DNA of 64,000 nt, from the NCBI GenBank assembly GCA_038874135.1, contig JAVZCZ010000001.1, positions 623,219-687,218 of the forward strand. Direction: 5' to 3'. A program made the translations under genes and the position numbers. This stretch comes from Candidatus Woesearchaeota archaeon. Its GTDB lineage: Archaea; Nanobdellota; Nanobdellia; Woesearchaeales; 0-14-0-80-44-23. Below, piece after piece: positions 32,181 through 60,089 of this stretch (positions are counted from its first letter, which is position 1; each line of letters begins with the position of its first letter). The notes beneath the pieces were generated by a model that was given only the letters and a program-made list of their open reading frames with translations, did not search any database and was not told the origin of the DNA.

Positions 32181-32847
32181 ATAGTATTTTCATAATAAGA
32201 AACAATATGACTTCTTCAATTGCTGTTGCTATCAAAACAAAAAACAGCCCATCCATAAAGAACCTTTCTGGAAAAAAAATTAGGATTCTGCTCCCTAAAG
32301 GAAACTGCCAGTTTCCCATTTTAAAAAATATTGCATGAAAACCAATGAAAGCTGCTGAGAAAACATTCCTAAAACAAACTGAAAATCCTAAGATAATCAC
32401 TAGAAAGAAAGTGGCAAAAATCATTTTTCTAAGACATACAAAAAAATTATCCAGCATAGCTGTACTTACTGCTAACATCATAAGTAAGCCTGCCAAACAG
32501 ACAATATAAACCTTAAACCCGAATTTAAACAAATTCTTAACATCATTCAGATGAGACGCTTCTTCTACACTAAAAATCCCCTCGCTGAGGGAAGCCCTTC
32601 CAACTAAAAAATCTGGGAATGTGTTAATGAATGATTCTGCGTCTTCCCTTGCAATTCCTACCTGTTCCAGCTCGCCATAAATATTTAGACGGTAGAACTC
32701 AAGCCTATACCATGTCTCACTGAAGGCAAGTGCGAAAGTGTTTGAAAGCATTAGAATAAATAGCAGGATTAAAGCCGCTAAGAAAGAAGATATCCAGCAT
32801 AGTGCAACCTTGCTAATCTTTACCATAATATGCGTATTATCCAGCAA
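32152..32847 (-). CDS. Polytopic membrane protein of unknown function
   Basis: 231 aa with about 5 TM helices. It overlaps the SLT gene by 29 nt and is probably co-transcribed with it. Confidence 0.45.
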   Translation of the reverse strand: MLDNTHIMVKISKVALCWISSFLAALILLFILMLSNTFALAFSETWYRLEFYRLNIYGELEQVGIAREDAESFINTFPDFLVGRASLSEGIFSVEEASHLNDVKNLFKFGFKVYIVCLAGLLMMLAVSTAMLDNFFVCLRKMIFATFFLVIILGFSVCFRNVFSAAFIGFHAIFFKMGNWQFPLGSRILIFFPERFFMDGLFFVLIATAIEEVILFLIMKILFDNAKKQKI

Positions 32848-44572: not shown

Positions 44573-44744
44573 ATATTCCTTCTTTTTTCAATTCATTTTT
44601 TTACTACTTCCTACTCTGTTAAACTCTTATGTTACCGCAAAGTAGAACATTTTTGAAAAGATTTAAATATTGAAAGGTTACAATTACACAAAAAAAGGGG
44701 TGGAATGTCAGTTAGCACGTTCCAGATGCACCGGAGGTAATAAG

Positions 44745-45572
44745 ATGATAGTAAAGGAAGAGTTTCTCAGCAAACTGCGCCTGTATTTCTCTCTAAACCT
44801 CTATGAAGTCAAGATTTGGACTGCTCTGCTCTCAAGAGGAGTTTCCACAGCAGGAGAGCTCTCAGACATAGCAAATGTTCCGAGGTCAAGGGCTTACGAT
44901 GTTCTGGAATCCCTTGAAAAGAAGGGCTTCGTAATAATGAAGTTCGGAAAGCCTATAAAGTATCTTGCAGTCCCTCCAGAAGAAGTTGTTGAAAGGGTAA
45001 AAAAACACATGCAGAGAGAGGCAGAAACAAAGATAAAGCGCCTAAATGACATAAGAAATACTGACATTCTGGATGAGTTAAAATCCATTCACAGTCAAGG
45101 AATAGAACTGGTAGAACCAACAGACCTCTCAGGTAGCCTAAGGGGAAGGCACAACCTATATAACCACCTTGAGTCAATGATGCTAGCTGCAGAAAAAACA
45201 GTCACGATAATAACGACAACGCAAGGTTTCATAAGAGAAGTTGAAGGATTTAAGCCGGTATTTGAAAAACTCAAAAAGAGAGGAGTAAAAATAAGAATAG
45301 CAGCCCCCCTAACGCAGCAGTGTGCAGCAGCAGTTGAAGAAGCCTCAAAGTATGCTGAAGTGAGGCATACAAAGACAAAGGCGAGATTCACAATAGTTGA
45401 TTCAAAAGACATAACCTTTATGGTTATGGATGATGCGGACGTGCACCCCACATATGACATAGGAATCTGGATAAACTCTCCATTCTTTGCATCTGCGCTT
45501 GAAGAGATGTTTGAACTCGCCTGGAAGGAGATGAAGCCAGCAGAAGAAGTTATAAAATTAAAAACCAAATAA
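44745..45572 (+). CDS. TrmB-family transcriptional regulator
   Basis: The N-terminal winged HTH LYEVKIWTALLSRGVSTAGELSDIANVPRSRAYDVLESLEKKGFV is the TrmB signature, followed by a C-terminal effector domain. The start is trimmed to MIVKEE. Confidence 0.75.
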   Translation: MIVKEEFLSKLRLYFSLNLYEVKIWTALLSRGVSTAGELSDIANVPRSRAYDVLESLEKKGFVIMKFGKPIKYLAVPPEEVVERVKKHMQREAETKIKRLNDIRNTDILDELKSIHSQGIELVEPTDLSGSLRGRHNLYNHLESMMLAAEKTVTIITTTQGFIREVEGFKPVFEKLKKRGVKIRIAAPLTQQCAAAVEEASKYAEVRHTKTKARFTIVDSKDITFMVMDDADVHPTYDIGIWINSPFFASALEEMFELAWKEMKPAEEVIKLKTK

Positions 45573-45594: not shown

Positions 45595-46905
45595 CTAATC
45601 TAATTCAATCTTCTTCCCACTCTGCCTTTTTATTGTTTCATATGCACTCATTATTAGCTCGCGAACCTTCTTCCTTTCACTTGGAGAAAGCTTCTCATAA
45701 TCCATCCTTAAACGCTGATAAATCTTAACTGCTCTTTCAACATTTCTCAACTCAGCTTCCCTGATAGCCCTCTTAGCCCTCAGCTTAATGATAGAAGTTT
45801 TCAAGCCAGCCGACCTAAAAACAAAAATCAGAATAATTGAAGCAACAAAAAATACCACAATAGTTAAAAGCCTCTTCTGCCGTAAGGCGTCCTCACTCTC
45901 AGCATAGGTAATTCCCGACATAGCACTAAGACGGAATTCTCGCATTTCAGAAACATTATCATAAAAGGCATAAACCTTAAAGGTATACCTCCCCTCGGGA
46001 ATTTCTGAACAATCCCAAAAGAATTCAACATCTGCGTCTTTAAATATCGTAAGTGAATTTGCCCTTATTTCAGAAATTAGACTACCTTTAGAATTCACAA
46101 CCTCAATTTTCGGCTCAAACTCAACACCCCTATTCCAATTTGAAACATAACTCACAACAATCCTATTTATCTCTCCAGGCTTGAATCCTGGAACTTCTAC
46201 CCTAATCGGAACTACTCTCACCTTCCCAATTCGGATAAGGGAATCATACCCTCGCTCTACACCATCGTAATACAGCCACACCCTTGCAAGATACTCACCC
46301 GAAAGATTACCACGGCTCCTACTTATCGTCTTCTCACTTCCAGAAGCAACTCCGCCAATACTCTGATTAATCCTGAAAACCTCAGAATCGCCATCATAAA
46401 GAACAAGAGAAGCATATGCATCCCTAATGTCACTCAGTCCAAGGTTTCTAACTCTTAAAGCAATCTCCCTCTCACTAGAGTTTATCATCGCAAAGAGAAA
46501 CTTATCAGACTTCACCACAGTATAAATCTGAGCACTTACAGATACACCGGCATTTATACCTTCTCCTTCAGAAGGCCTGGCTGAAAACACCACTTCAGTA
46601 ACATAAGTTCCAGGGCTCAAGCCAGAAGGTAGTTTTACTTCAACATTAACAGGATAGTATTCCTGCTCTGCACTTATCTTGAAAGAATAGTTGGATATTT
46701 TAAAATATTCTGCAAGCTCACCGCTCACAATAGCAGAAACATAAACCGGTACTCTATCCTTATTATACAATCTGAACTGCAAGTTATTTACAATGCCCGG
46801 CTCGTATTCCAGAGTATAATATGCTGGACCAACACCCAATCTCAATGCTTGCACAATTGAAGCTAATGTAAGCACTCCTAAAATCCAGATTAAAATTTTT
46901 TTCAT
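45595..46905 (-). CDS. Cell-surface protein with C-terminal TM anchor and cytoplasmic coiled-coil tail
   Basis: 446 aa with a signal peptide, an ectodomain paralogous to 42004-43194, the TM LLTIVVFFVASIILIFVF and a basic coiled-coil tail. It is the last gene of the HTH-plus-giant-protein operon. Confidence 0.55.
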   Translation of the reverse strand: MKKILIWILGVLTLASIVQALRLGVGPAYYTLEYEPGIVNNLQFRLYNKDRVPVYVSAIVSGELAEYFKISNYSFKISAEQEYYPVNVEVKLPSGLSPGTYVTEVVFSARPSEGEGINAGVSVSAQIYTVVKSDKFLFAMINSSEREIALRVRNLGLSDIRDAYASLVLYDGDSEVFRINQSIGGVASGSEKTISRSRGNLSGEYLARVWLYYDGVERGYDSLIRIGKVRVVPIRVEVPGFKPGEINRIVVSYVSNWNRGVEFEPKIEVVNSKGSLISEIRANSLTIFKDADVEFFWDCSEIPEGRYTFKVYAFYDNVSEMREFRLSAMSGITYAESEDALRQKRLLTIVVFFVASIILIFVFRSAGLKTSIIKLRAKRAIREAELRNVERAVKIYQRLRMDYEKLSPSERKKVRELIMSAYETIKRQSGKKIELD

Positions 46906-46906
46906 C

Positions 46907-49900
46907 TCAACTCGCCATAATATAGATCGTAGCATTCTTAGTAGCAGGAGGCTCCGCGCTTGGAACTTCCACTCTTATGTCAATCCTCGCTTCATCCGCA
47001 TAGTCCAGATATCCTAAATCAATAATTGAAAGAGTTGAAATGTTAGTCATGTTAGTCCAGGATGTCCGCGAGTTTCTCCAGTCAAAAGCATAATATTCTC
47101 CGCTAATATTTCCTATCCTGAACTGATAATAGCTAGTGTTAAGAGGCACTGAACTCCAGAGGGCTGTAGAGTTTATACTTATATTCACAGGAATGTTACC
47201 ATTATTTCTAATTTTTATAGGCTGAGGACTATTATCTAAGGTGTCTTCTATTGCTCCAGGATTTAAATTTCCGAAAGAGACATTTGCAACATAGATTTCA
47301 ATATCCCTATAAGGCTCTATTGAGAAGTTCCAAGTATCACTCCACTCTCCATAGTCAAAGCTGTCAAACGCCCTAACCTTCCAGAAGTACGAAGTTGAGA
47401 GGTTAAGCTGGCCCGGATAGGTGTAGCTTGTTAAATTCGTATCAGTGATTATTAATGGAGAGGAGAAGTCAGCATTGTCATCTACCACGAGAGAATATGT
47501 TATCTTATCTGATTCTGGGTCAATGGCGGCATTCCAGACGAAAGTCATATTTCGGTCATGCTCTGTTCCGCTGTTATTCAATGGGCTTGTAAGGTTAACT
47601 TTTGAAGGAGGAGTGTTGTTACTCCTAATTTCAATGTATGTGGGTAGGGTTTGATTGTATCCCGTTTGAGAATAATTCAGAGATTCAAATATTACAAAGA
47701 ATTCGTACTTGCTACCCTTAGTGCCAGTTGCGTTTACATACCAAGTTACATTGCAGCTCTGCTGGTCATAAATACTGCCCAAGCAGCTTAAATCGCTGCT
47801 CAGCAGAGGATTTGAAGTGTTGGTCCAGAACGGGATTGTTCCAGGAATAGTTGAAATTATCCCTTTTGAGGATAACACTAAGAACTCGTGACTGGCGTAC
47901 CCGCCGATGTTTCCAGCATTGTCAAACGCCTTAACATAGAATGTGTGATTCCCCGACGGAAGCGTTTCGTTCATGTAATACAAACTAGTTGTATTTCTAC
48001 CACCCACTTCAGGCGCACTATCATCAATAGCGTAGTAATAGCCAGCCACCCCGCTCACATCATCATATGAAGCACTCCAGTTAAATGTTCTGTTGCTCAC
48101 AAAGCTCCACCCTTCAATTGAGTCCGTAAGATTCTGAGGTATGGATGGCGGAGTCCAGTCAATGCTGAAATTTACTGAAATAGTGTTTGAATTATTAACA
48201 TTATCATACGCTCTCAGCTCAACAACACAGCCGTACTGCATCTCAACATTACAGTCCATTCCTAAGCCAACGCTTATTCCTAAAACATCGTTGCAGTTCC
48301 TTACAGTCCAGCCCTTAGTTTGAGTTCCATTGCTCAAAACCCTGTAGTAGCATGCCTTGAGCCCTGAAACAGAATCGGAATCTGAGATGTTAATCTGGAA
48401 GTTAGAATTCTTCCAGGAGCCCGCAGCTGGAGAGTTAAGAACTATTTGAGGTGCAGTTACATCTCTAACTAAGGTAAACTGAGTTGTATTCATATTTCCA
48501 GCATTATCATAACAGGTTATTGTGCCGCTTCCATTAAAGGTGCTGGAAGTGCTAAAATTATAAGCGCCAACATCCTGAGAGGCATATGGTGAAGAAGTAT
48601 CATTCCCATACCCGGCAATTGTAGAAAGCTGAGGGAAATTTACAGCCGCAATCCCGTTGGAATCACCAGCACTCACAGAAATGTTAATGCTTCCAGAGCC
48701 AGCAGGGCTATAATATGTAGTGTTTCCAACAACATATGCATAATCAGAAGTTTTAGAAATTTCTGTAATCACGCAATAAGGTATTGAATAGTCTATTTTG
48801 ATTGTTTTGCTTTGGGTTGTTTCTGTGTTTCCGGCGTTGTCTGTGCTGTTGTATCTTATGTATGTTGTTCCCTGGGTGTTTATTTGTATTGGTGCGGTGT
48901 ATGTTGTGGTTGGCGTGCAGGTGTTTGTTGTGTCTGTGCAGTATTGTGTGAGTGAGCATCCTGAGCCTGAGGCGTCGTTGCATGTTAGTGTTACGTTTAC
49001 GTATGGGCTTTTTGTCCAGGTGTTGAAGGTGTAGCTTGCTCCGGTGCTGTTTACTGCTGTTGCCGTGGTTGTCGGCGGTGTTGTGTCTATTTTGATTGTT
49101 TTGCTTTGGGTTGTTTCTGTGTTTCCGGCGTTGTCTGTGCTGTTGTATCTTATGTATGTTGTTCCCTGGGTGTTTATTTGTATTGGTGCGGTGTATGTTG
49201 TGGTTGGCGTGCAGGTGTTTGTTGTGTCTGTGCAGTATTGTGTCAACGCGCAGGTGCCCCCTCCGCTGTCTGTGCAGTTCAAAGTAACATTTACATAAAG
49301 GCTTTTAGTCCAAGTATTGAAAGTATAAATTGTTGAAGAGTTAGTTATTGCAGTAGCATTAGTAAAGGGAGCATTTGCATCATAAGTAAATGTTGTGTTT
49401 ATAACTGCTGAAGTTTTTATCTGTCCACAAGCGTCTGCAGAATTTTCTAATGCTCTAAGGTATATCGTGCAGGTGCCTGTAACTGTGCAGGCTGTAGATG
49501 CTACGAACTGGCAGCTGGCTTGGCTGCCGCTGCTTACTTGTGTTGAGTTGCACAGGGTCTGTGTGCATGCTGAGTCCTTACAAACTTGAAGTTTCATTGC
49601 GTCAGCATTCGGGTCTGTAATTGTGGCTGTGGCGTTTACTATAGTGTTTGGTCCCGCGCAGCTGGGCGTTGCTGATGGACTTGCAGGAGTGTTTGGTGGG
49701 GCGTTTGTTGAAGTGCTCGTCCACCCAGTGGCTGTACAGCTTACTCCAGTATAGCACGTCTGGCTTGTGGAATTGTAACAAAATCCTGAGTTGCAGTTTC
49801 CTCCAGTGCATGTGCATAGTGTTGTATTTACTACTGTACTTGTGCTTCCACTTGCCCCTCCAGAGGTGCATGCTACATTATAACAGCAGGTGTCTATGTT

Positions 49901-52900
49901 GCCTGAGTTGCAGGTACTGCTGTCTGCTCCCTTGCAGTAAGTGTTAGGGCTTGCGCACATGGTTGTGCTGCTTGGACATCCCGTTCCAGTGTAGTAGCAG
50001 GTTGTTAGAGTCCAGCACTTTCCACTTGGTCCTGTTCCCGCACAGGTGCTTACATATTCTATTGGGTATCTGCTAGTTGTACTGCTGTATGCTGTTTCTA
50101 CACTCTGATTGTTTCTAGCCTTTACCCTGTAGGTGTATTGTGAGAAGCAGTTTAGTCCAGAATCTATGTAACTCATCGCAGTTGTCCATCCAGAGTCTGT
50201 TGCTCCAGCATTGTATGATGTTTCGTTAGCATAGTATTGAGGGTTGTTATATGCACATACTGCTGTCCAGCTTACATTTAAACTTGTTGTGCTTGTTGGA
50301 GTTACTGTCGGCGCACTGGGTCCATTTACGAGCGTGTATGTACAGCTTGTTGCTGAGGCTGTTCCAATATTATTTAAAGAATCTCTCGTTTGGGCGGTGT
50401 AGCAGTATTGCGTGTTACAATTTAACCCAGTATCAGCCCATGTTGGGCTGGTCTGCCATCCGCTGCTAGCTGTTGTTGGACTTGTTCTATTTATTTGATA
50501 GTATACCGTAGCTGAGCATCCCGTATCTGTAGCTGTTGTGGCTGTTATGTTTATTTGTGAGCTTGAGATTGGTGTTGTGCTGCTTATTGTTGCCGGGTTC
50601 GGAGTAGGCGAGCTGACATCAATGCTCAACACAGAGCAAGAACTCCAACTTCCCCAATTATTGTAAACATCCTTCGCTTTGACCCTCCACGAATATGTGC
50701 CTGTTGATAGAGCGCTGGGAGTCCAGCTATTTGAGGAAGGCGTTCCTGTTTGAAGAGCAGTTCCGCTGCAGTCAGAAGTTGAGTAAATCTCAACCTGATA
50801 GCCAGCAACAGAAGAACAGCCAACATCTGAAGGAGCACTCCAAGACAAAGTGGGAGTTGAAGAGCCATTACAATTACCAGAACTTGGCAGCAAGCCCGTA
50901 GGAGCATTAGGACCTGCAAAGTCAATGTAATAAATGTTTGAACTCTTCAAAGATTCAGCATTGCTAACATTATCTATTGAATAAGTGCATATCTTCTTAG
51001 CGCAGTAGCTACCAGGCGGGCACCCTACCAAAAATTGTGAAGAGTACAAACTCATCCCACTTATATCGCACGCTGTTCCAGAATCAACAATCTTATACCA
51101 GGTTGAACTGCATCCAGAACCAGAACCGTCACTGCAAGAAAGTGTGACTGAAACGTTTGAATTGTTACAAGCTTGTCCATTAGGATTAATAGTTGTTGTT
51201 GGAGCCTGTGCATCAATATAAATTGTTGAACTCTTAGTAGTTTCAACATTAAAAGCATTATCAGTGCTGTTATACCTAACATAACCCACGCACACACTTC
51301 CCGCAGCGCACTGGAATAAGATGGGAGTGCTAAGCGAAGATGGAGTGCAGGAGTTTGTCCAGTCACCACAAGCGTGAGTAGCCAAGCAGCCACTCAAAGC
51401 ATCCGTACAGTTAAAACCATTCACACTAACATTCAAACTAGTCCAAGTGCCAATAATATAACTGCTTGAATCAGACTTAGTAATATTAGAAATACTTGTT
51501 GTTGGAGCTGTTGTGTCACTTCCAACAATTAGTGTTCTCATCTCTGTTTGATTTACATTTCCAGCCAAATCTTGAGCATAAGCAATGTAGGTATATGTTC
51601 CCGTGGGGAGTAGTGTAAAGTTGTGATATAATCTATAAATCCCTGCATTGTAGGAAGTAGCTATCTCCTCAGCACTAAGCGCCCTATTGTAAATGCGGAC
51701 TTCATCAATTGTGCCTTTTAAGTAATAAGTTGAATATTTACCAATAATTAAATTTAAATTGTTCACACCTATATTGCCAGTTGCTGATAAAGCTGATCCA
51801 GTAGGAGTGCCATCTAACCATAATCTAACTGCACTTCCATTATAAACCATCGCAACATGATGCCATGAATTGGGAGATACTGAACCACCGTCAGACACTT
51901 CTTTCCAACCACTTATATTAACTCCTCCTTTTAAGGTTCCACTGCTGGTGACATATAACCAATACACAGAATCTGCTGCTAAATTTCCTTTTTCAATTAT
52001 CATTTGTGTAGTTGTTGGAGTTGCTGCGAGGTTGATCCATGCTTCAAGAGTAATAGCATTTGTAATGTTTAAACTTTTATCAGTTGGGACGGTTATATAG
52101 TCATCTATCCCGTCAAATGTTAATGCGCTTCCGAATTTTCCGGCTGTCGTAATATTTGGGCAGCTAGTTCCAGAACATGTTGCATTGTTGCCGTAAATGC
52201 TCCAATCTTTAAAGAATGTGCTGTTTTCTTCACTCTCTTGATTGAATCTCCACCACCCAACCAGGCTGCTATTCCAATCAATAAGTCCTGTTGTGTTGTA
52301 AGCGTCACTTATACTAACATTTACGAAACTCCAATTCTTGTATGTAAATGTTCCATTCGCATCAGTTTGTCCTTGAAATGAAATAGCAGGTTTCACATTA
52401 TCTATTGTAATAATTCTTGTTTCGCTTTGTCCTGCGTTTGCTACTGAGTCGTTTGCCCAGCCGTAATAGGAATAGGTTCCCTGTGTTAGGTTTGTTATGT
52501 TGTTGTAGAATCTCCATTCTGTTGAGCTGTATTTTGCAAATTCTGACTGGTAGTGCATTAGTATTTCTTGTGGAGATAGTGCTCGTTTGTAAATGCGGAC
52601 TTCATCTATTGATCCATTAAAGAAGTAGGAGGAGTTCGTTAATGTTCCTATTTTTAGTGTGTCTGTTGTTGCGTAGGGTGTTGATGTTGCACTGGTGTAA
52701 GCTAGAAAACCACTTTTGTTTTGCCCATTTACATATAACTCAAGGTTGTCATTCCCTTTAATAATTCCTACAACGTGTACCCACTGATTTTTTGGAAAGT
52801 CTGTAGTTCTGAATTCATCCCACCCAGCTCCATCTCCGTATGCAACGCTTAGCATCGCGCTATTGTTCATAATTCCTAAGAAATAGTTTTTCTGAGCCCA

Positions 52901-53839
52901 AGTGCCAGGACCTTTTTGAACAAAAGCAGTGCCTCCACCTAGTTGAGTTGTATTTATGTACACCCAAGCTTCTATAGTGATTGGAAATGTAGTTATTTGA
53001 AGAGATGTGCTGTGAGGTATCATAACCCAGTCATCTACTCCGTCAAATGTAATTCCCTTTCCAAAACGTCCTGTAGTATATTGAGGGGGCCTATTTCCAT
53101 CTGCATTACTAGTATTTGCATCATACATTGTTCCGTTGTTTCCATATTTTGATATGTCTACTGCTGTTGTGGCGCTGTCTCCTATTGCAGAATTGTTGTT
53201 GAAGTTTAATGCTAGTACTAGTGAATCGTCGTAGAAGGTGTAGTTTGTGCCGTTCCAGTTGAATTTGAAGGAGTCTAGTCCTGCTCCGCTTTCTACTATT
53301 GTTATATTTATTTGTGTGTAGTTATTGGGGGTGTATGTGTTGTTTGCTGGGGTTGGATAATAAAATGTTAATGTAGGAGCTGTTATGTCTCTGTATACGT
53401 AAAGTGTTGTTGTTCCTGTTGAGCCCCAGTAGGAGTAGCAGGTTATTGTGGCTGAGCTGCTGTAAGTGCTGCTCGTTGTCCAAGTGTAGGTCCAACTGTA
53501 GGGATAGCTTGTATCACTTCCTCCAGTGGATACTGTGCTTGGAAAACTCACACTTGATATGCCGTTAGGATCATTAGTGCTTGCAACCACATTTACTGTG
53601 AATGTTCCTCCTGCTATTGTGTTGTAATATTCGTATGGGGCTGAAGCATATTGGTATTGGGGGTTTGTTCCTTCGGTTATTGATTGTATTGAACATGTTA
53701 CTGTGTAAGCAAATGCTTTGAAGCCGTAGGCTTTTCCGTCTTCTTTAGGATTAACTCCGTATATTAGGAAGGTTATGGTGAGTATCAGCGCTATTATTTC
53801 CAGCGTTTTTCTCATTCCGGGTTGTATTCTCGTTTTCAT
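46907..53839 (-). CDS. Giant (2310 aa) secreted cell-surface protein with two LamG (concanavalin A-like) domains and Thr/Ser/Cys-rich repeats
   Basis: N-terminal signal/TM. Two LamG_3-like blocks (FDGVDDWVMIPHS ... GSIDEVRIYKRALSPQEI and FDGIDDYITVPTD ... GTIDEVRIYNRALSAEEI). Long Thr/Ser-rich Ig/FN3-like repeats, including two near-identical 98-aa tandem units. Confidence 0.8.
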   Translation of the reverse strand: MKTRIQPGMRKTLEIIALILTITFLIYGVNPKEDGKAYGFKAFAYTVTCSIQSITEGTNPQYQYASAPYEYYNTIAGGTFTVNVVASTNDPNGISSVSFPSTVSTGGSDTSYPYSWTYTWTTSSTYSSSATITCYSYWGSTGTTTLYVYRDITAPTLTFYYPTPANNTYTPNNYTQINITIVESGAGLDSFKFNWNGTNYTFYDDSLVLALNFNNNSAIGDSATTAVDISKYGNNGTMYDANTSNADGNRPPQYTTGRFGKGITFDGVDDWVMIPHSTSLQITTFPITIEAWVYINTTQLGGGTAFVQKGPGTWAQKNYFLGIMNNSAMLSVAYGDGAGWDEFRTTDFPKNQWVHVVGIIKGNDNLELYVNGQNKSGFLAYTSATSTPYATTDTLKIGTLTNSSYFFNGSIDEVRIYKRALSPQEILMHYQSEFAKYSSTEWRFYNNITNLTQGTYSYYGWANDSVANAGQSETRIITIDNVKPAISFQGQTDANGTFTYKNWSFVNVSISDAYNTTGLIDWNSSLVGWWRFNQESEENSTFFKDWSIYGNNATCSGTSCPNITTAGKFGSALTFDGIDDYITVPTDKSLNITNAITLEAWINLAATPTTTQMIIEKGNLAADSVYWLYVTSSGTLKGGVNISGWKEVSDGGSVSPNSWHHVAMVYNGSAVRLWLDGTPTGSALSATGNIGVNNLNLIIGKYSTYYLKGTIDEVRIYNRALSAEEIATSYNAGIYRLYHNFTLLPTGTYTYIAYAQDLAGNVNQTEMRTLIVGSDTTAPTTSISNITKSDSSSYIIGTWTSLNVSVNGFNCTDALSGCLATHACGDWTNSCTPSSLSTPILFQCAAGSVCVGYVRYNSTDNAFNVETTKSSTIYIDAQAPTTTINPNGQACNNSNVSVTLSCSDGSGSGCSSTWYKIVDSGTACDISGMSLYSSQFLVGCPPGSYCAKKICTYSIDNVSNAESLKSSNIYYIDFAGPNAPTGLLPSSGNCNGSSTPTLSWSAPSDVGCSSVAGYQVEIYSTSDCSGTALQTGTPSSNSWTPSALSTGTYSWRVKAKDVYNNWGSWSSCSVLSIDVSSPTPNPATISSTTPISSSQINITATTATDTGCSATVYYQINRTSPTTASSGWQTSPTWADTGLNCNTQYCYTAQTRDSLNNIGTASATSCTYTLVNGPSAPTVTPTSTTSLNVSWTAVCAYNNPQYYANETSYNAGATDSGWTTAMSYIDSGLNCFSQYTYRVKARNNQSVETAYSSTTSRYPIEYVSTCAGTGPSGKCWTLTTCYYTGTGCPSSTTMCASPNTYCKGADSSTCNSGNIDTCCYNVACTSGGASGSTSTVVNTTLCTCTGGNCNSGFCYNSTSQTCYTGVSCTATGWTSTSTNAPPNTPASPSATPSCAGPNTIVNATATITDPNADAMKLQVCKDSACTQTLCNSTQVSSGSQASCQFVASTACTVTGTCTIYLRALENSADACGQIKTSAVINTTFTYDANAPFTNATAITNSSTIYTFNTWTKSLYVNVTLNCTDSGGGTCALTQYCTDTTNTCTPTTTYTAPIQINTQGTTYIRYNSTDNAGNTETTQSKTIKIDTTPPTTTATAVNSTGASYTFNTWTKSPYVNVTLTCNDASGSGCSLTQYCTDTTNTCTPTTTYTAPIQINTQGTTYIRYNSTDNAGNTETTQSKTIKIDYSIPYCVITEISKTSDYAYVVGNTTYYSPAGSGSINISVSAGDSNGIAAVNFPQLSTIAGYGNDTSSPYASQDVGAYNFSTSSTFNGSGTITCYDNAGNMNTTQFTLVRDVTAPQIVLNSPAAGSWKNSNFQINISDSDSVSGLKACYYRVLSNGTQTKGWTVRNCNDVLGISVGLGMDCNVEMQYGCVVELRAYDNVNNSNTISVNFSIDWTPPSIPQNLTDSIEGWSFVSNRTFNWSASYDDVSGVAGYYYAIDDSAPEVGGRNTTSLYYMNETLPSGNHTFYVKAFDNAGNIGGYASHEFLVLSSKGIISTIPGTIPFWTNTSNPLLSSDLSCLGSIYDQQSCNVTWYVNATGTKGSKYEFFVIFESLNYSQTGYNQTLPTYIEIRSNNTPPSKVNLTSPLNNSGTEHDRNMTFVWNAAIDPESDKITYSLVVDDNADFSSPLIITDTNLTSYTYPGQLNLSTSYFWKVRAFDSFDYGEWSDTWNFSIEPYRDIEIYVANVSFGNLNPGAIEDTLDNSPQPIKIRNNGNIPVNISINSTALWSSVPLNTSYYQFRIGNISGEYYAFDWRNSRTSWTNMTNISTLSIIDLGYLDYADEARIDIRVEVPSAEPPATKNATIYIMAS
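48790..49380. repeat. Intragenic tandem repeat, two units of about 294 bp with about 165 bp of perfect identity
   Basis: The string tctattttgattgttttgctttgggttgtttctgtgtttccggcgttgtctgtgctgttgtatcttatgtatgttgttccctgggtgtttatttgtattggtgcggtgtatgttgtggttggcgtgcaggtgtttgttgtgtctgtgcagtattgtgt occurs twice. It encodes the repeated YCTDTTNTCTPTTTYTAPIQINTQGTTYIRYNSTDNAGNTETTQSKTIKID. Confidence 0.8.
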
Positions 53840-54330
53840 TCTTTCTCTTTTGCCTTATTATAGGCTGTCCAGACCGTTCTGTAGTTTCTTTTCAGGATTT
53901 TTGCAATTTGGCTGAGCCGCATATTTTTTTCATCCTTTAGGAACTTTACAGCAGATTCTAGTATTCCCATGTTTCTGTTTTCAAATGCTCTTAGGGGGAT
54001 GAGTATTCCTGTTTTTTCTGCTGGTTTTTTTCTTTCAGTCTTTTTTATTGTAGTCCAGATTGTCTTGTAGCTTCTTCCAAGTTTTTTTGCTATCTCTTTT
54101 GTTGAGTAGCCCTTTGCTTTTAGTTCGGTGCATATTGCTCCCAATGGTGCTCTTTTCTGAAATATTCCTGCATCTATGAAGTTTCTGCCTTCTTCTGAAA
54201 TTCTTAACAAATCCTCCTTCTGAATTCCATATCTCCTGCTCAGTTCTTCTATGCTAGTGCTGATTTTTTGCAGCATGTCTTCTTCCCTGCTCAATATCTT
54301 CTCCATCCACTCAGCATTTTCAAATTCCAT
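53836..54330 (-). CDS. Small double-HTH protein (two sigma-70 region 4/LuxR-like helix-turn-helix repeats), putative regulator
   Basis: 164 aa. HTH1 is GYSTKEIAKKLGRSYKTIWTTIKK and HTH2 is MRLSQIAKILKRNYRTVWTAYNKAKEK. There is a 4-nt overlap with the giant LamG gene. Confidence 0.55.
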   Translation of the reverse strand: MEFENAEWMEKILSREEDMLQKISTSIEELSRRYGIQKEDLLRISEEGRNFIDAGIFQKRAPLGAICTELKAKGYSTKEIAKKLGRSYKTIWTTIKKTERKKPAEKTGILIPLRAFENRNMGILESAVKFLKDEKNMRLSQIAKILKRNYRTVWTAYNKAKEKE

Positions 54331-54396
54331 TTTTCCTATTTAATAAGTATTTTATTTATTAATTATTTAAATATTTTCCTATTTAATAAGTATTTT
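54331..54396. promoter_or_regulatory. Two 23-bp direct repeats (ttttcctatttaataagtatttt) 43 bp apart in the upstream region of the double-HTH gene
   Basis: Perfect copies at about 54331-54353 and 54374-54396. They are AT-rich and sit where a BRE/TATA and an operator would be expected. Confidence 0.45.
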
Positions 54397-54397
54397 T

Positions 54398-57300
54398 TTA
54401 TTTTTCATCAGGACTTACTGAGATAAGATAGTTCACCTCCTCTTGATTATAATCTGTAACTATGACGCCGTTCCAGTCTACCCTAAACTTTCTGCCGGTT
54501 TCATTATATGATTGTGAGTTCAGATATTCTTCTATTTTCCTTTTAATCGAGTCTTCTAGCATCTTGTGTAATTCTAAGGGGTCTAATGTTGCATTGAGAT
54601 CACCACAAGGACCTCCAACGCACCTCACGCCTGCCTTGAATGTGAAGAACTTCTGATACGGCACTGTTGTGTTTCCATAAGGCTCGTATGGCCACACATA
54701 GTATGGTTCTAGGTGTCCGTATGCTGAGTTATTGAACATGAAGCTGTATATGTAGGTGCCTATATCTCCTAATGAGTTATTTGCGTATATTGTTATTGTA
54801 TGAGTTTGTTGGTCTGTAAGGTTTGTTGTGTTTATGTAGTATGGAGCGTTTAGTGTGTTGTTTGTTCCTCCGTCTATGTTGTACCATGAGGCGTTGGCTC
54901 CGCTTATTGTGAATTTGAGTAGGGTGCCTGTGTGTATTATTGAGTTGTTTACTGGGCTTTCCAGGGTTACTATTGGCAGTCCCGCCATGTTGTATGCATA
55001 TGCTGTTTTGTTTCCAAACCTGAATTGCTGAGTGTGTTTTCCTCCTGTTAGCACATTTACTGTGTAATATGATGTTGTTGAGCAGTTGTAGTTTTCAACC
55101 ATTATTGAGATGACTGGTATGCTCAACTCTGAATCCATTAAGGTAGTGTAATTTATGTAGCTCAGTTCTCCATCCGAAGTGCAGCCTAGTGTTGAATTTT
55201 CAATTTTGCCATCTGTGCATGAGGCATTGCTGATTACTATTATCCTGTTCTTGTTTATTATATTGTTTCCACATTTTAGCTCTATAAATCTAAGATCGTC
55301 TTCTGTTTCGTTGTTGTCATTTGGCTCTTCCCTGTAAGTTGTGCCGTTGTATGCTGTTATTATTAAGTTGGCAGTTCCTGTAGTGTTGAAGGCAGTTGTC
55401 CAGTTTCCTCCTATCATTGGGAAGCTCTGTACTGTTATTATTATTAGGTCTATCTGTAATTCAAATTCTTCTTCACTCAGCAGAGGGACTGTCCAGACTA
55501 CCTTTTCAACCCTTCCGTTGCCGTTCAGGTCTATTAACTGGACGTTGAATCTTTCATCATTTGTTACATCTTGTTTTGTTCCATTGACTATCCAGAAGAG
55601 CTTCACTTGCTCTGGCAGCGACTCCGGTATTGAGCTATAGGCAGTTGTATTCTCATAGTGTATGTAAGACTCTGATCTTATTGTTACTTTTTTCTTCCAA
55701 GTGTTCTGGTCTTTTGTTGGTTTTTCTTCAATCTTTTCAGGAGCTGGAGTTGTGAATCTTATAAGGTATTGTGTTTCTTCATCTTTTTCTGGAATTATTA
55801 GTTTTATTGCTTCATCTATCTTTGCAGGTGGCGTTACCTCTTTTGCTACCTGTGGAATTTCAGTAAGTGTTTGTGCTGAAGTTCCATTCTCCTCCTCTTT
55901 TTCTTGTATCACAACATTTTCTGATGTCTCTGCAGTACCGTTTTCCGTTGTTATTTCTTGAGTAACAGTTTGGTTTTCTGTTGCTTGCAATACACTTCCT
56001 GTTGTTATATTCTCCTGACTTGCATTTTCTTCCAAGATTAGTGTTGTTGTATTTTCTTCACTGTACACTGCAAATCCTGTTATCCTACTAAGCTCTGCAA
56101 AAATCTTATATACGAAGCTGACAACTCTTTCTGCAAAGTCGGTTATGCTCCTAGTGGTTTTAATTGCTGCTCCCGTTATTGTCTGGACTGAACTCTGAAT
56201 TTGTGTTTCTCCCCTGTTGTAGTTTTCAATATTTTCAGTCTTGTTGTCCACGCTTACTAGGGCTTCTGTAACTTGTATGTTTAAGCTTCCGTATCTTTTA
56301 TACACTGTTATGTTCTTGGCATCTTTTGGAAGCACTATATCTATGGTCTGAGTTTCATTGCTTACTTTTCTTAGCGAGATTTTATGCGTCCACTCAACCG
56401 GTTTTCCAATTTCCGCCTTTGACTGTACAAACTCCTGCGATATGATTATTACTCCTTTTTCAAACATCTCAATTATGATTGTAAACCTGCTCTTTATTTC
56501 TCCTGTTGAAGCTTCAAGTATTACATAACCGAGGCCTGTGCTTTGGTCTTCCTTCCAGATGTTCAGAATTTCTCCTTTTGTTTCTGCTCTAATATTTGCA
56601 GACTCTATTACTGAGTATGTTATGTTTTGGTCTTTTCCGCCCGTGCAGTATTCTCTGAGGTTTATGGTTGTGTAGTTTTCCGTGAGGATTATTGGATTGA
56701 AAATGCATTCTATTGCAGTTTTTTGCTGAGGTAGTACTTCCACTTCTACTTCGTTGCTATATGTTATTTCGTTGGTGTTTGAAGCTGCAAACTTTATGGT
56801 GTAGTATCCTGATTCTTCTGCTCTTATTTCTGCGATTTCTTTTTCAATTGTTATTGTAAGACCATCAGCCCCTATTGCGATATAACTTAGTTCCCTTCCA
56901 TTTTCTTCAGTGAAGTATTCTGATAGGTTTATTATTGCACTTTCGTTTATCTCTAGTGTTATTGTTGGAATTTCTTTTGTTAGCACAGGCGCTTTTTCTG
57001 TTATGTTCTGAGTTACTTCTTCGCTTATGTTTTGGGTTATGTTTTCTGTTATGTTTTGAGGTATGTTTTCAATAGTCTGTTCGCTTGTTTTGTTTTCTTG
57101 CGGAATTTCTTCGCTTATGTTTTGGGTTATGTTTTCTGTTATGTTGGTGCTTGTTTCTGTTATGCCAGTTTCATTGCTTTCTGATGTTATGTTTTCTGAA
57201 GTTTGGTTGGTTTCGTTTGTTTCAATTATGGTGATGTTTTCTTGTGTTGTAACTTCTGTAGCGTTTTGAGTGGTTATGTTTTCCCAGCTGCTGAGGTTTT

Positions 57301-57781
57301 GGGTAGTTTCTGGTATTGTTAGATTGCCAGTTCCGTTTTCCGTCTCATTGTAGGTTGCACTTTCGTTTTCTAATATTGCAAGTCCTGTTATCCTTGTTCT
57401 TAAGATTCCTGTTGCATACAGCAGTCCAGTTATTCCTACGGCTATTAATAACACTGCTATTATCGGTGCATAATTGCGCGTTTCTCTTTCCTCTTCAATT
57501 TTTCTTATTTTTTCTTCTAATTCACTGAGTTTCTGTTGCTGCTGAGTTATCTCTTGCAGTTTTTCGTCTTTCCAATTCTCAGGCGTTTTTCCTTCAAAGA
57601 TTCTTGCTATTTCTCTGGTGTACTCTTCTAAGCTATACTCATCCTTCAGATAGGCGATGTAGAGCTGTTTTCTGGTCGCGTCTGTTATTTCTATCTTCTT
57701 CCTAAGCAGGTCTATGGTTGTGGCTGTCTTTTCTATTTCTGCCCTAATCTTCACTATCCTTTCACGCTTGGATTTATTCAT
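54398..57781 (-). CDS. Type II membrane protein (1127 aa) with cytoplasmic coiled-coil, single TM and a huge sequon-rich ectodomain
   Basis: N-terminal coiled coil (about 110 aa), then the TM IIAVLLIAVGITGLLYATGIL, then dozens of N-x-T/S sequons. These include the tandem ENITQNISEE(I/V) repeats, which are mirrored by 40-bp nucleotide direct repeats at about 57018 and 57108. Confidence 0.7.
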   Translation of the reverse strand: MNKSKRERIVKIRAEIEKTATTIDLLRKKIEITDATRKQLYIAYLKDEYSLEEYTREIARIFEGKTPENWKDEKLQEITQQQQKLSELEEKIRKIEEERETRNYAPIIAVLLIAVGITGLLYATGILRTRITGLAILENESATYNETENGTGNLTIPETTQNLSSWENITTQNATEVTTQENITIIETNETNQTSENITSESNETGITETSTNITENITQNISEEIPQENKTSEQTIENIPQNITENITQNISEEVTQNITEKAPVLTKEIPTITLEINESAIINLSEYFTEENGRELSYIAIGADGLTITIEKEIAEIRAEESGYYTIKFAASNTNEITYSNEVEVEVLPQQKTAIECIFNPIILTENYTTINLREYCTGGKDQNITYSVIESANIRAETKGEILNIWKEDQSTGLGYVILEASTGEIKSRFTIIIEMFEKGVIIISQEFVQSKAEIGKPVEWTHKISLRKVSNETQTIDIVLPKDAKNITVYKRYGSLNIQVTEALVSVDNKTENIENYNRGETQIQSSVQTITGAAIKTTRSITDFAERVVSFVYKIFAELSRITGFAVYSEENTTTLILEENASQENITTGSVLQATENQTVTQEITTENGTAETSENVVIQEKEEENGTSAQTLTEIPQVAKEVTPPAKIDEAIKLIIPEKDEETQYLIRFTTPAPEKIEEKPTKDQNTWKKKVTIRSESYIHYENTTAYSSIPESLPEQVKLFWIVNGTKQDVTNDERFNVQLIDLNGNGRVEKVVWTVPLLSEEEFELQIDLIIITVQSFPMIGGNWTTAFNTTGTANLIITAYNGTTYREEPNDNNETEDDLRFIELKCGNNIINKNRIIVISNASCTDGKIENSTLGCTSDGELSYINYTTLMDSELSIPVISIMVENYNCSTTSYYTVNVLTGGKHTQQFRFGNKTAYAYNMAGLPIVTLESPVNNSIIHTGTLLKFTISGANASWYNIDGGTNNTLNAPYYINTTNLTDQQTHTITIYANNSLGDIGTYIYSFMFNNSAYGHLEPYYVWPYEPYGNTTVPYQKFFTFKAGVRCVGGPCGDLNATLDPLELHKMLEDSIKRKIEEYLNSQSYNETGRKFRVDWNGVIVTDYNQEEVNYLISVSPDEK

Positions 57782-58361
57782 TTGACAGTTTCTTTTCAGC
57801 TCTTTTGGCTATTGTCCAGATTGTGCGCGGATCCCTTTTGAGTGTGGATGCAATTTGGCTCAGTTTGAGCCCTTTTCCTCTGAGATGATGCACTATTGCC
57901 TCTAGGACGGAGAGCTGCCTTGAGGCGATGATTGAGATTGGAATCTTATTTTCAGAAGCGGCATCCAATTGTTCAGGCATTTTGGAGCTCGCATTTTTGT
58001 AGGTGCTCCAGATTGTCCTGGGGTTTCTGTTGAGAATTTTTGCAATTTTGCTGTAAGAGTACTTCTTGTTCTCTACTAGATATTTTACTATACTTTCGAA
58101 AGGAGATATCTTTGTGTTAAAGATTGAATCTGGAAAATTTTCAGAGCTCTCTTCTGTTGGTTCTATGCTTTTTAGAAGTGTTAAAAGTATTTCGGAGGAT
58201 AGCTCTTCTGTTTTCTTCTGTATTATTCTTGTTATGATTTCGTTAAGCGCGCTTTGAAGCTTCTTACTCTTTAGGCTTTCATCTCCTTGCTTTTCTAAGA
58301 ATTCCTTATTTCTCAAGTATTCTTCGCGCGCGATTTTAAACCACTCTACCAAAAGCCGCAA
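57774..58361 (-). CDS. Small double-HTH protein, paralog of 53836-54330
   Basis: 195 aa. HTH1 is YSYSKIAKILNRNPRTIWSTYKNA and HTH2 is GLKLSQIASTLKRDPRTIWTIAKRAEKK. There is an 8-nt overlap with the 1127-aa gene. Confidence 0.55.
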   Translation of the reverse strand: MRLLVEWFKIAREEYLRNKEFLEKQGDESLKSKKLQSALNEIITRIIQKKTEELSSEILLTLLKSIEPTEESSENFPDSIFNTKISPFESIVKYLVENKKYSYSKIAKILNRNPRTIWSTYKNASSKMPEQLDAASENKIPISIIASRQLSVLEAIVHHLRGKGLKLSQIASTLKRDPRTIWTIAKRAEKKLSNE

Positions 58362-58387
58362 AAGTGCTACTAATATATTGATTTACT

Positions 58388-58502
58388 CATTATGTAAGAT
58401 TATTTATATATAAATATTTTGAATTTTATTATTTTTTACTTATTTTGTAAGATTATTTATTACTTATTATGTAAGTATTATTACTTATTATGTAAGTATT
58501 AT
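58388..58502. promoter_or_regulatory. Four copies of a 21-bp AT-rich direct repeat (consensus cttattatgtaag(a/t)ttattt) in the divergent promoter between the double-HTH gene and pheS
   Basis: Copies at about 58388, 58438, 58461 and 58482. The last two are perfect tandem acttattatgtaagtattatt. They share a TAAG(T/A)(A/T)TT core with the repeats at 54331-54396. Confidence 0.5.
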
Positions 58503-58547
58503 TTTTTGTGCAAAGATTTATATAGATTTTTCTTTTCCAATTTTGAG

Positions 58548-60089
58548 ATGGCCTCTCAGAACCTGAACGAGATTATAGAAGGTCTTCACCCATATGAAAA
58601 AAAGGTGCTCTCAAATCTGCACGAGCCTACCACATTTGAGTCGCTGCTGGAAAGAACTGGCCTTAAAGATGTCCAGCTTATGAGGGCAATTCAGTGGCTT
58701 CAGAATAAGGGGCTTGTTTCTGTTAAGACCGAGCTTAAAGAGGTGGTCGTTCCCGATTCTAACGGGAAGATTTATCTTAAGCAGGGGATGCCTGAGCGCA
58801 GGTTTCTTGAAGCTATAAGTGCCGGGCCCTTGACTGTTTCAGAGCTGAAATCTAAAACGGGGCTTTCTGATCAGGAGGTTGAGGTTTGTATTGGCATCCT
58901 GAAGAAGAAGCTCGCAATAGAGATTCAGAAGACAAAGAAGGGACTGCAGTTCTCAATTACTGAAAATGGCAGAAACATACTCAGTCAGGGCTCTCTTGAG
59001 GAGAACTTCCTTAAGCGCCTTCCAATTGAGGTTTCCAGTATGGAGCGCGAGGACAGATTCTGCTATGAAGAGTTGAGAAGGAGAAATAGGATTGTTAAGA
59101 ACGAGGTTATTAACAGCAGAGTAATCCTTCCAACCGAGCTTGGCTCCCAAATTTCTTCTTATGATTTAAGCCAGGATTTGATAGAACAGCTCACTCCAGA
59201 GATAATCAAGAGTGGCGAGTGGAAGGTTAAGAAATTTCGCAGGTACGATGTCAAGGCTCCCGTTCCTCAAATATATTTTGGAAGGCGACACTTTGTAAAT
59301 GAGACGATAAGGTATATAAAACGCATCTGGCTGGACCTTGGTTTCAGAGAGATGGAAGGCAACATTGTTCAATCCAGCTTCTGGAATTTTGACGCACTGT
59401 TCACCCCCCAAGATCATCCTGCTAGAGAGCTTCAGGACACATTTTTCCTAAAAAATCCGGCAAACAGCTCACTTCCAGACGCGTCTTTAGTCAAAAGGGT
59501 ATCTCAAACCCATGAGAACGGCTGGAAAACAGGAAGCACTGGATGGCGCTACCGTTGGAGTTCTGAGGAGGCAAAGAAATTGGTTTTAAGGACACACACC
59601 ACAGTGCTTTCAGCTAGGACAATTGCCTCCCTTAAAAAGGAGGAGCTTCCTGCAAAGTTCTTTGCAGTTGGCAGATGCTTTAGAAACGAAACTCAGGACT
59701 GGAGCCACCTCTTTGAGTTCTACCAGGTAGAAGGCATAGTTGTTGATCCAAACGCCAACTTCAAACACCTCATCGGCTATCTGAAACTCTTTTATAACAA
59801 GATGGGATATGATGAGGTGAAAATAAGACCGGGATACTTCCCATACACAGAAATGAGCGCAGAGATTGACGTTTACGACCGCGAGCATAAGAAATGGATA
59901 GAGCTCGGCGGGGCGGGAATATTCAGGCCAGAGGTGGTCAAGCCACTCTTAGGAGAGGACATTCCAGTTTTAGCATGGGGCTTAGGGCTTTCAAGGATAA
60001 TATCACAATACTACAAGCTTGACGATTTGCGAAGACTGCACAGCAACAACCTTAAGGAGCTGAGAGAGGCAAGGGCCTGGCTCAGGTGA
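58548..60089 (+). CDS. pheS: Phenylalanyl-tRNA synthetase alpha subunit
   Basis: Class II motifs (FDALFTPQDHPARELQDTFF, GRCFRNE, GAGIFRPEV). The start is trimmed to MASQNL; the upstream Tyr/Leu/Cys-rich extension is translated repeat DNA. Confidence 0.85.
   Translation: MASQNLNEIIEGLHPYEKKVLSNLHEPTTFESLLERTGLKDVQLMRAIQWLQNKGLVSVKTELKEVVVPDSNGKIYLKQGMPERRFLEAISAGPLTVSELKSKTGLSDQEVEVCIGILKKKLAIEIQKTKKGLQFSITENGRNILSQGSLEENFLKRLPIEVSSMEREDRFCYEELRRRNRIVKNEVINSRVILPTELGSQISSYDLSQDLIEQLTPEIIKSGEWKVKKFRRYDVKAPVPQIYFGRRHFVNETIRYIKRIWLDLGFREMEGNIVQSSFWNFDALFTPQDHPARELQDTFFLKNPANSSLPDASLVKRVSQTHENGWKTGSTGWRYRWSSEEAKKLVLRTHTTVLSARTIASLKKEELPAKFFAVGRCFRNETQDWSHLFEFYQVEGIVVDPNANFKHLIGYLKLFYNKMGYDEVKIRPGYFPYTEMSAEIDVYDREHKKWIELGGAGIFRPEVVKPLLGEDIPVLAWGLGLSRIISQYYKLDDLRRLHSNNLKELREARAWLR

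Follow-up and report, generated by a model that had tools for sequence, protein, structure and literature searches.

Paired 23-bp repeats as candidate operators of a double-HTH protein upstream of a giant surface-protein gene in a Woesearchaeota archaeon

Results

The window analysed here is a 64-kb stretch of the genome of a Candidatus Woesearchaeota, a tiny symbiotic archaeon of the DPANN group, and the part of it that concerns us is a run of genes, all on the minus strand, in the order 195-aa HTH gene, 1127-aa gene, a gap of 67 nt, 164-aa HTH gene, 2310-aa gene and 446-aa gene. Two paralogous modules, each made of an HTH gene followed by a large gene, stand here in tandem, and the gap, which holds the first set of repeats (set 1), separates them. 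The upstream module begins with the gene of a 195-aa double-HTH protein (57774–58361, minus strand) that is 35% identical to the 164-aa protein. This gene overlaps the start of the 1127-aa gene by 8 nt, and its own start codon is probably a TTG, at either 58361 or 58352, since there is no in-frame ATG near the 5′ end of the open reading frame. The large gene of the same module (54398–57781, minus strand; stop codon at 54398–54400) encodes 1127 aa; its family is unassigned, and the protein has regions in common with the products of large genes that lie 3′ of HTH homologues at other loci. Inside it, at 56993–57145, there is a tandem repeat with a period of 12 nt and units like GTTATGTTTTCT (plus strand), which encodes a short-period peptide repeat.

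The downstream module begins with the 164-aa double-HTH gene (53836–54330, minus strand; ATG at 54330–54328), whose stop is overlapped by 4 nt by the start of a giant gene of 2310 aa (46907–53839, minus strand). The giant product is a surface protein with Laminin_G_3 and Ig-like domains and an N-terminal membrane anchor. Last in the module is a 446-aa gene (45595–46935, minus strand), its family unassigned, which is homologous to a 402-aa gene found 3′ of the giant gene on contig L007. A TrmB-family regulator gene adjoins the module (44670–45572), and pheS and pheT are divergent from the 195-aa HTH gene. Searches of PHROGs and NCBIfam gave no specific family and no mobile-element or defence-system identity. 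Exact copies of the 164-aa protein are present in assemblies GCA_038731275.1, GCA_038872315.1 and GCA_038873055.1. In the first of these the giant gene (L001:10492–17959, corresponding to 46907–53839 of the window) is called as two pieces of 295 and 2159 aa, has an internal block order that differs from that of the window, and contains several internal repeats that are 92–96% identical; the difference reflects either genuine shuffling within a modular gene or an error of assembly.

Two identical 23-nt repeats, at 54331–54353 and 54374–54396, fill the 67 nt that separate the 1127-aa stop codon from the ATG of the 164-aa gene; they lie 43 bp apart from start to start, just as the initial annotation had described them; the match between them extends to 26 nt at 96%. 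The unit reads AAAATACTTATTAAATAGGAAAA on the coding (minus) strand, and the whole gap, read along that strand, is TAA-A-AAAATACTTATTAAATAGGAAAA-TATTTAAATAATTAATAAAT-AAAATACTTATTAAATAGGAAAA-ATG. The distal copy (54374–54396, minus strand), with its core AATACTTATTAAAT, is separated by a single base from the TAA that ends the 1127-aa gene, and the proximal copy (54331–54353, minus strand) abuts the ATG of the 164-aa gene, a position that is kept in the ortholog on contig L005; the proximal copy also contains a weak Shine-Dalgarno-like AGGA. When both strands of the 64 kb were searched for the 23-mer with up to three mismatches, these two copies were the only matches, and none of 100 dinucleotide shuffles yielded two or more. 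The initial annotation had taken the repeats for half-site-like elements, a view that does not hold: every repeat is a complete 17-bp pseudo-palindromic site, with arms CTTA and TA[A/G]G about 11 bp apart. In set 1 that site is TACTTATTAAATAGGAA, one to a repeat, with arms CTTA and TAGG, the right arm being imperfect.

During archaeal initiation, transcription starts some 22–27 bp downstream of the TATA box. Other genes of the window share the BRE/TATA pattern GAAAA(G/A)(A)TTTA(T/A)ATA; in leaderless ones such as pheS it ends 22–25 nt before the ATG, and others have longer leaders with GGAGG-type Shine-Dalgarno sequences. A TATA-like box, TATTTAAATA (54364–54373, minus strand), lies in the spacer between the two set-1 copies and matches this local pattern, while the 3′ end of the distal copy, GGAAAA (54374–54379), doubles as the BRE by its match to the local promoter consensus. 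Spacer and distal-copy end together read GGAAAATATTTAAATAA, which fits the local BRE/TATA consensus, and GGAAAA-TATTTAAATA is a good counterpart of the sequences GGAAAAATTTAAAAG, GAAAAAGTTTAAATA, GAAAAGATTTATATA and CAAAGATTTATATA that precede other genes of the window, the last of these being the BRE/TATA of pheS (58511–58524, plus strand). The agreement of GGAAAATATTTAAATAA with the promoters of other genes here lends support to the earlier suggestion that an internal promoter may allow the giant genes to be expressed separately. The ATG of the 164-aa gene comes 33 nt after the TATA box, and from the TATA-to-ATG distances of the leaderless genes we predict a transcription start at about 54343, inside the proximal copy, which would give the 164-aa gene a leader of roughly 10–13 nt. 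Between the 1127-aa stop and the 164-aa ATG the coding strand of the gap has no oligo-T terminator; read-through from an upstream promoter is therefore likely, and the promoter in the gap would add independent control of the second module.

Set 2, the repeats upstream of the 195-aa gene, spans 58384–58498, with repeat-family copies starting at 58383, 58436, 58460 and 58481. Its 17-bp pseudo-palindrome is TACTTACATAATAAGTA on the coding strand, and the four copies that had been reported upstream of the paralogous HTH gene are real, two of them exact and two with three mismatches to the 17-mer. Copy a, ATCTTACATAATGAGTA (58384–58400, minus strand; 17.6 bits), lies directly downstream of the TATA box of the 195-aa gene, TTTATATATAAA (58403–58414, minus strand), which we read from the sequence by the local consensus. 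Copy b, ATCTTACAAAATAAGTA (58437–58453, minus strand; 16.8 bits), follows 53 bp from copy a, copy c, TACTTACATAATAAGTA (58461–58477, minus strand; 20.0 bits), is identical to the family consensus, and copy d, again TACTTACATAATAAGTA (58482–58498, minus strand), ends 12 bp before the BRE/TATA of pheS. Because copy d ends so close upstream of that promoter, occupancy of set 2 could also affect expression of the divergent pheS–pheT operon, and with it that of phenylalanyl-tRNA synthetase. The canonical family members L016, L025, L028 and L031 have the order TATA, 4 nt, 17-mer, 1–6 nt, ATG, with the site filling the space between TATA box and start, and copy a is placed in the same way with respect to the TATA box of the 195-aa gene. 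An ATG inside copy a (ACATAATGAGTA, 58388–58390, minus strand) opens a frame of six codons only; in L021 and L026, by contrast, the HTH gene itself starts at the corresponding ATG.

The two sets have the 8-mer TAAGTATT in common (coding strand AATACTTA), which occurs six times on the two strands of the window, four of the six within the set regions. The TAAGTATT core covers only the left arm of the 17-bp site plus its flank. Alone, a shared 8-mer is weak evidence, because we estimate that some 4–5 occurrences are expected from base composition. We therefore built a 17-column weight matrix solely from the regions upstream of homologues in other genomes. With this matrix set 1 scores 8.7–9.4 bits, in either orientation because the site is a pseudo-palindrome; judged against random 23-mers of equal composition that score has P = 0.001, and in the AT-rich parts of the window the matrix background at the set-1 score is 0.75–1.1 matches per kb. 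Compared with the set-2 site, set 1 has retained TACTTA as its left arm and most of its right one (TAGG vs TAAG), without the conserved C7/A8, and on this moderate matrix match we regard set 1 as a diverged variant of the set-2 family site (P about 0.001–0.02). The initial annotation had claimed that the sets share a core, TAAG(T/A)(A/T)TT; the kinship of the sets stands by the weight matrix, but the proposed core fails in the two diverged copies of set 2, which read TAAGATTA.

The double-HTH family to which both proteins belong comprises 2246 representative clusters in a profile search, and its members, where they are named in the sources, are mostly called 'hypothetical' or 'HTH domain-containing'. 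Neither Pfam nor NCBIfam has a model dedicated to the family, all NCBIfam matches being far below their cut-offs, and in the literature consulted on DPANN HTH regulators, giant genes and promoters we found no description of the family or the motif, which is not proof of absence. In a survey of 27 archaeal loci (Woesearchaeota, Nanoarchaeota and Pacearchaeota), the partner downstream of the HTH gene was of two types, either a giant ORF or a conserved protein of about 240 aa. The latter (L016:4443–5213, L018:2518–3261, and also in L025, L026, L027, L028, L030, L031 and L035) lies directly downstream of the HTH gene, is 37–57% identical between genomes and is itself followed by a giant ORF in L018; the L016 and L025 proteins had no Pfam match. 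In P0004, P0006, P0010, P0016 and L013:2–4354 the double-HTH module is found at the C-terminal end of ORFs 1450–5919 aa long, either as a true fusion of the giant gene with the next HTH gene or because both the stop codon and the gap between tandem modules are missing from those sequences.

When the 200 nt upstream were read at 24 of these loci, the same motif kept recurring. As a non-circular test, we took the 17-mer as derived from the window and counted its matches, with up to three mismatches, in 22 independent foreign DPANN loci. Between −200 and +30 of the HTH gene starts there were 17 matches in 5.06 kb, spread over 11 of the 22 loci, against six in the remaining 155.7 kb of the same loci, four of these six in AT-rich parts (21.5 kb). 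The 17-mer is thus enriched upstream of the double-HTH homologues 86-fold over the rest of these loci and 18-fold over its AT-rich parts. The upstream matches run in the direction of the gene in 15 cases out of 17, and they are present with either downstream partner, giant gene or 240-aa gene. With the trained matrix, a threshold of 13 bits or more gave only five matches outside the upstream regions in about 155 kb, one of which is due to a mis-set start codon in L028, and in the window there was no such match outside set 2. The matrix itself is symmetrical, with arms CTTA(CA)...TAAG around a centre at position 9, and the site in L014 is a perfect palindrome.

Where several copies lie together, the distances between them cluster at 21–22, 31–33, 41–43, 52–53, 62–64 and 73–75 bp, a helical phasing with a Rayleigh R of 0.79 at a period of 10.5 bp that none of 20,000 uniform nulls reached. 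The 43-bp spacing of set 1 fits this series. Related sites elsewhere come in two to four phased copies, including copies upstream of the TATA box and within coding sequence. It had been proposed that the operator reading would fall if the element turned out to be ubiquitous in AT-rich DNA as a mere BRE/TATA consensus. It is not ubiquitous: the window has it at only two loci, and the 18-fold enrichment holds against AT-rich DNA. On the shuffles, 17-mer enrichment and matrix background we rejected a generic AT-rich or BRE/TATA explanation. Two further matches to the 17-mer, at 32185 and 32470 with three mismatches each, fall inside the coding region for a Lit-like membrane protein (32152–32847, minus strand), and we judged them to be chance. 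Next to that gene is one for a protein with an SLT lytic-transglycosylase domain (31098–32180, minus strand); in a DPANN genome, an enzyme that cleaves peptidoglycan hints at an interaction with bacterial cell walls.

Conservation of set 1 can be followed through three groups of orthologs. The closest homologue that is not identical, P0002, has 56% protein identity and is found on contigs L005 and L006, where the layout is the same, with ATACTTATTAAATGGGAAAA present twice, 43 bp apart, and the proximal copy ending at the ATG. In L005 the same A-to-G change has occurred in both copies of the repeat, and the spacer has diverged. In metagenome contigs the 21-mer AATACTTATTAAATRGGAAAA had exact matches at 11 loci. 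At six of them the match immediately precedes a double-HTH gene (hmmsearch 1e-47 to 1e-81), and the remaining five, which comprise two unrelated sequences, are about what chance would give. The group formed by L039, L043, L044, L046 and L047 is more distant, with 47% protein identity to the 164-aa protein, and its 124-kb contig L039 has the synteny of the window: HTH gene, 1242-aa gene, stop codon, repeat pair, HTH gene. There too the two cores are 43 bp apart, and the copies differ in the right arm. In a four-way alignment the three ortholog groups (window, 56%, 47%) show no variation in either AATACTTATTAAAT core or in the 43-bp spacing, the ATTTAA of the spacer is largely kept (L005, L039), and the flanks and the rest of the spacer differ.

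Five strain-level assemblies have both set-1 copies and the spacer unchanged, and the close strains L001–L004 are uninformative on constraint because their intergenic region is 98–100% identical. P0003 on L007 (41% identity) is also uninformative, since only 115 nt of upstream sequence precede the end of the contig, and a protein-pattern scan of the metagenome contigs, based on a two-sequence alignment, gave no confirmed relative. In the L039 group (L039:1115–1205, minus strand; also L043, L044, L046 and L047) an 86-nt insertion separates the proximal repeat from the ATG of the HTH gene, flanked by a duplicated AATRGGAAAA and folding into two strong hairpins (−28.4 kcal/mol, z = −4.7); it matches no Rfam family above threshold and is possibly a small mobile element, or else a leader with secondary structure.

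The protein that we presume to bind these sites has clear HTH domains in Pfam: the 164-aa protein matches HTH_23 with 41.3 bits (cut-off 24.6) and Sigma70_r4_2 with 37.1 bits (cut-off 25.7), and the 195-aa protein matches HTH_23 with 35.9 bits and HTH_38 with 31.8 bits. A confident AlphaFold2 model of the 164-aa protein, made from a 67-sequence alignment (pLDDT 92, pTM 0.72), has a helical hairpin at the N-terminus, followed by two tri-helical HTH domains with a basic linker between them, and arms about 11 bp apart would suit two such domains sitting in adjacent major grooves. A Foldseek search of the PDB found no solved structure resembling the whole protein; the top match was Cbp2 (2LVS, E = 0.022, TM 0.25–0.35), followed by sigma region 4, RcsB and the DNA-binding domains of mariner/SETMAR, and the best PDB matches by sequence were sigma-H region 4 and RcsB (E = 0.003–0.01). 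The recognition helix of the first HTH domain (HTH1) reads RSYKTIW in all three set-1-type groups and R(D/N)PRTIW in most CTTACA-type loci, a link between helix and site variant that is suggestive only, because the three set-1-type groups form one clade and count as a single evolutionary event.

Discussion

Our preferred reading, to which we give a probability of about 0.6, is that the set-1 repeats are paired operators for the adjacent 164-aa double-HTH protein, set within an internal promoter that would drive the HTH, 2310-aa and 446-aa genes. That the repeats are plausible operators of the double-HTH proteins had been suggested from the start, and the specificity of the element, its footprint in the orthologs and its enrichment across the family all argue for it. 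Archaeal regulators that are bound over the BRE/TATA region hinder TBP and TFB, and where the bound site is between TATA box and start it is the recruitment of RNA polymerase that is hindered. In the arrangement proposed here the distal site would overlap the BRE and abut the TATA box, while the proximal site would cover the predicted transcription start and end at the ATG. The two sites would lie on the same face of the DNA, since 43 bp is about four helical turns, and binding may be cooperative between them across those turns. A protein occupying both would be expected to hinder TFB binding as well as RNA polymerase recruitment, and the most likely outcome would be negative autoregulation of the operon of HTH gene, giant gene and 446-aa gene. 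Repression is taken here only from the position of the sites, by analogy with characterised archaeal regulators, and its sign is the least certain step of the model.

We infer that the double-HTH protein is the binder, and its place could instead be taken by some other factor, such as a surface-operon regulator or a chromatin protein, with real sites in the gap and the double-HTH protein acting elsewhere. The tie between protein and site rests on sequence comparison, and a gene for a regulator of the TrmB family adjoins the module. We think another binder unlikely, however, because across 22 loci the double-HTH gene is the only common neighbour, the downstream partners falling into two unrelated classes, and because two paralogous modules in one genome carry different site variants; the set-1 variant also travels with the RSYKTIW type of HTH1.

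A 17-bp operator needs neither the identity of the copies over all 23 bp nor the A-to-G change that they share in L005, and both features could reflect gene conversion or a dual role of the repeat as BRE and Shine-Dalgarno sequence. Taken further, such a dual role might account for the repeats with no dedicated regulator at all: the distal copy would be the BRE or an upstream element, and the proximal one a leader with its Shine-Dalgarno-like AGGA and start context. The distal GGAAAA does sit exactly at the position expected of a BRE, the string RGGA, 4 nt, ATG is kept in the window, in L005 and, after the insertion, in L039, and other genes here use GGAGG-type Shine-Dalgarno sequences. Yet two separate core functions would not preserve an identical stretch of 14–23 nt in the two copies through three ortholog groups, conservation is strongest in AATACTTATTAAAT, which is neither BRE nor Shine-Dalgarno, and related sites elsewhere occur in two to four phased copies, some upstream of the TATA box or inside coding sequence, all of which makes this account distinctly improbable.

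Gene conversion and deletion are also at the heart of another proposal, in which the repeats serve as recombination substrates and the loss of one 43-bp unit, TATA box included, switches the giant-gene module off in a form of phase variation. Perfect identity of the 23-bp copies within the genome, their joint change in L005, the TATA box between them and the rearranged blocks of the giant gene between strains would all be in keeping with it, but all five strain-level assemblies retain both copies and the spacer, with no single-copy variant among them. The spacing is kept in L039 even though the copies differ there in the right arm, no recombinase is encoded in the module, and the family-wide phasing points to protein binding, so that we give phase variation very little weight. 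Hardly any likelihood attaches, finally, to a role of the repeats in the RNA of read-through transcripts, as a processing site, structured leader or re-initiation signal, for although read-through is plausible with no oligo-T terminator in the gap, the fold of the gap is not better than that of shuffles (z = −0.61) and there is no Rfam match at E ≤ 1 in 53700–58700, on which grounds we rejected an RNA structure or known RNA family, while direct repeats cannot pair with each other and at most loci the family sites precede the TATA box of a first gene and would not be transcribed.

Read as paired operators, the repeats would join a familiar class. Autoregulated archaeal repressors with operators at or downstream of the TATA box include MDR1 of Archaeoglobus and Phr and LrpA of Pyrococcus, and the sites of Lrs14 of Sulfolobus overlap the BRE/TATA region. 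Like these, the present system has putative operators over the BRE/TATA or the start of its own operon, with multiple sites per promoter, here judged from the sequence, and by analogy steric exclusion of TFB or RNA polymerase would be expected. Those regulators are of the DtxR, wHTH and Lrp types, whereas each chain here has two tri-helical HTH domains resembling sigma region 4 and LuxR; the promoter here is, moreover, internal to a pair of tandem modules. As for the domains themselves, they score above the Pfam cut-offs for HTH_23, Sigma70_r4_2 and HTH_38, in likeness to sigma-70 region 4 and to the LuxR/GerE type of HTH (for instance RcsB), and the presence of two HTH domains per chain recalls the bipartite HTH of IS630/mariner transposases and paired domains. 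Sigma regions 2 and 3, a receiver domain and the catalytic domain of a transposase are all absent here, and archaea have no sigma factors.

The nearest structural parallel is with Cbp1 and Cbp2, the CRISPR-repeat-binding proteins of Crenarchaeota (PDB 2LVS), which are likewise small, have tandem HTH domains and a basic linker, and act on a repeated DNA element, as is proposed for the present protein. Cbp2 offers a precedent for the binding of a DNA repeat by one archaeal polypeptide in which two HTH domains are linked (PMC3597662). The resemblance is weak (Foldseek E = 0.022, TM 0.25/0.35; profile against PDB, E = 0.31), and the site here is a promoter-proximal pseudo-palindrome rather than a CRISPR repeat, the protein has an extra N-terminal helical hairpin, and no CRISPR array lies near the module, so that we do not place the protein among Cbp1/Cbp2.

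DPANN archaea are uncultivated or barely cultivated episymbionts, and to our knowledge almost nothing is known of how they regulate the giant surface proteins that are thought to mediate contact with the host. What we describe is ordinary in kind, a putative transcription-factor operator in an archaeal promoter, and yet it appears, on sequence comparison across genomes, to be a new and widely conserved candidate site for a family of DPANN regulators linked to giant surface-protein genes. A bolder view, which we offer as speculation and would not expect to hold in full, sees in it an undescribed DPANN-wide cassette: a tandem-HTH factor with phased sites in the core promoter, in fixed register by the TATA box, would switch giant surface-protein operons, and with them host contact, on and off, the factor being either titrated by the cytoplasmic N-terminus of the giant protein, as a feedback from export, or itself a promoter-specificity or activator factor.

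With the DNA site TACTTACATAATAAGTA and its set-1 variant, a candidate family of binders and a promoter layout now defined, the two paralogues and two site variants in one genome make a natural specificity pair, and regulation can be tested directly with recombinant protein and synthetic DNA, without the need for culturing. The motif can also be used for the prediction of regulons in DPANN genomes. In L022 a second copy of the site variant of that locus (TACTTACATAAACAGTT, L022:1654–1670) lies in intergenic DNA 2.2 kb upstream of the HTH gene, where it possibly marks an additional member of the regulon.
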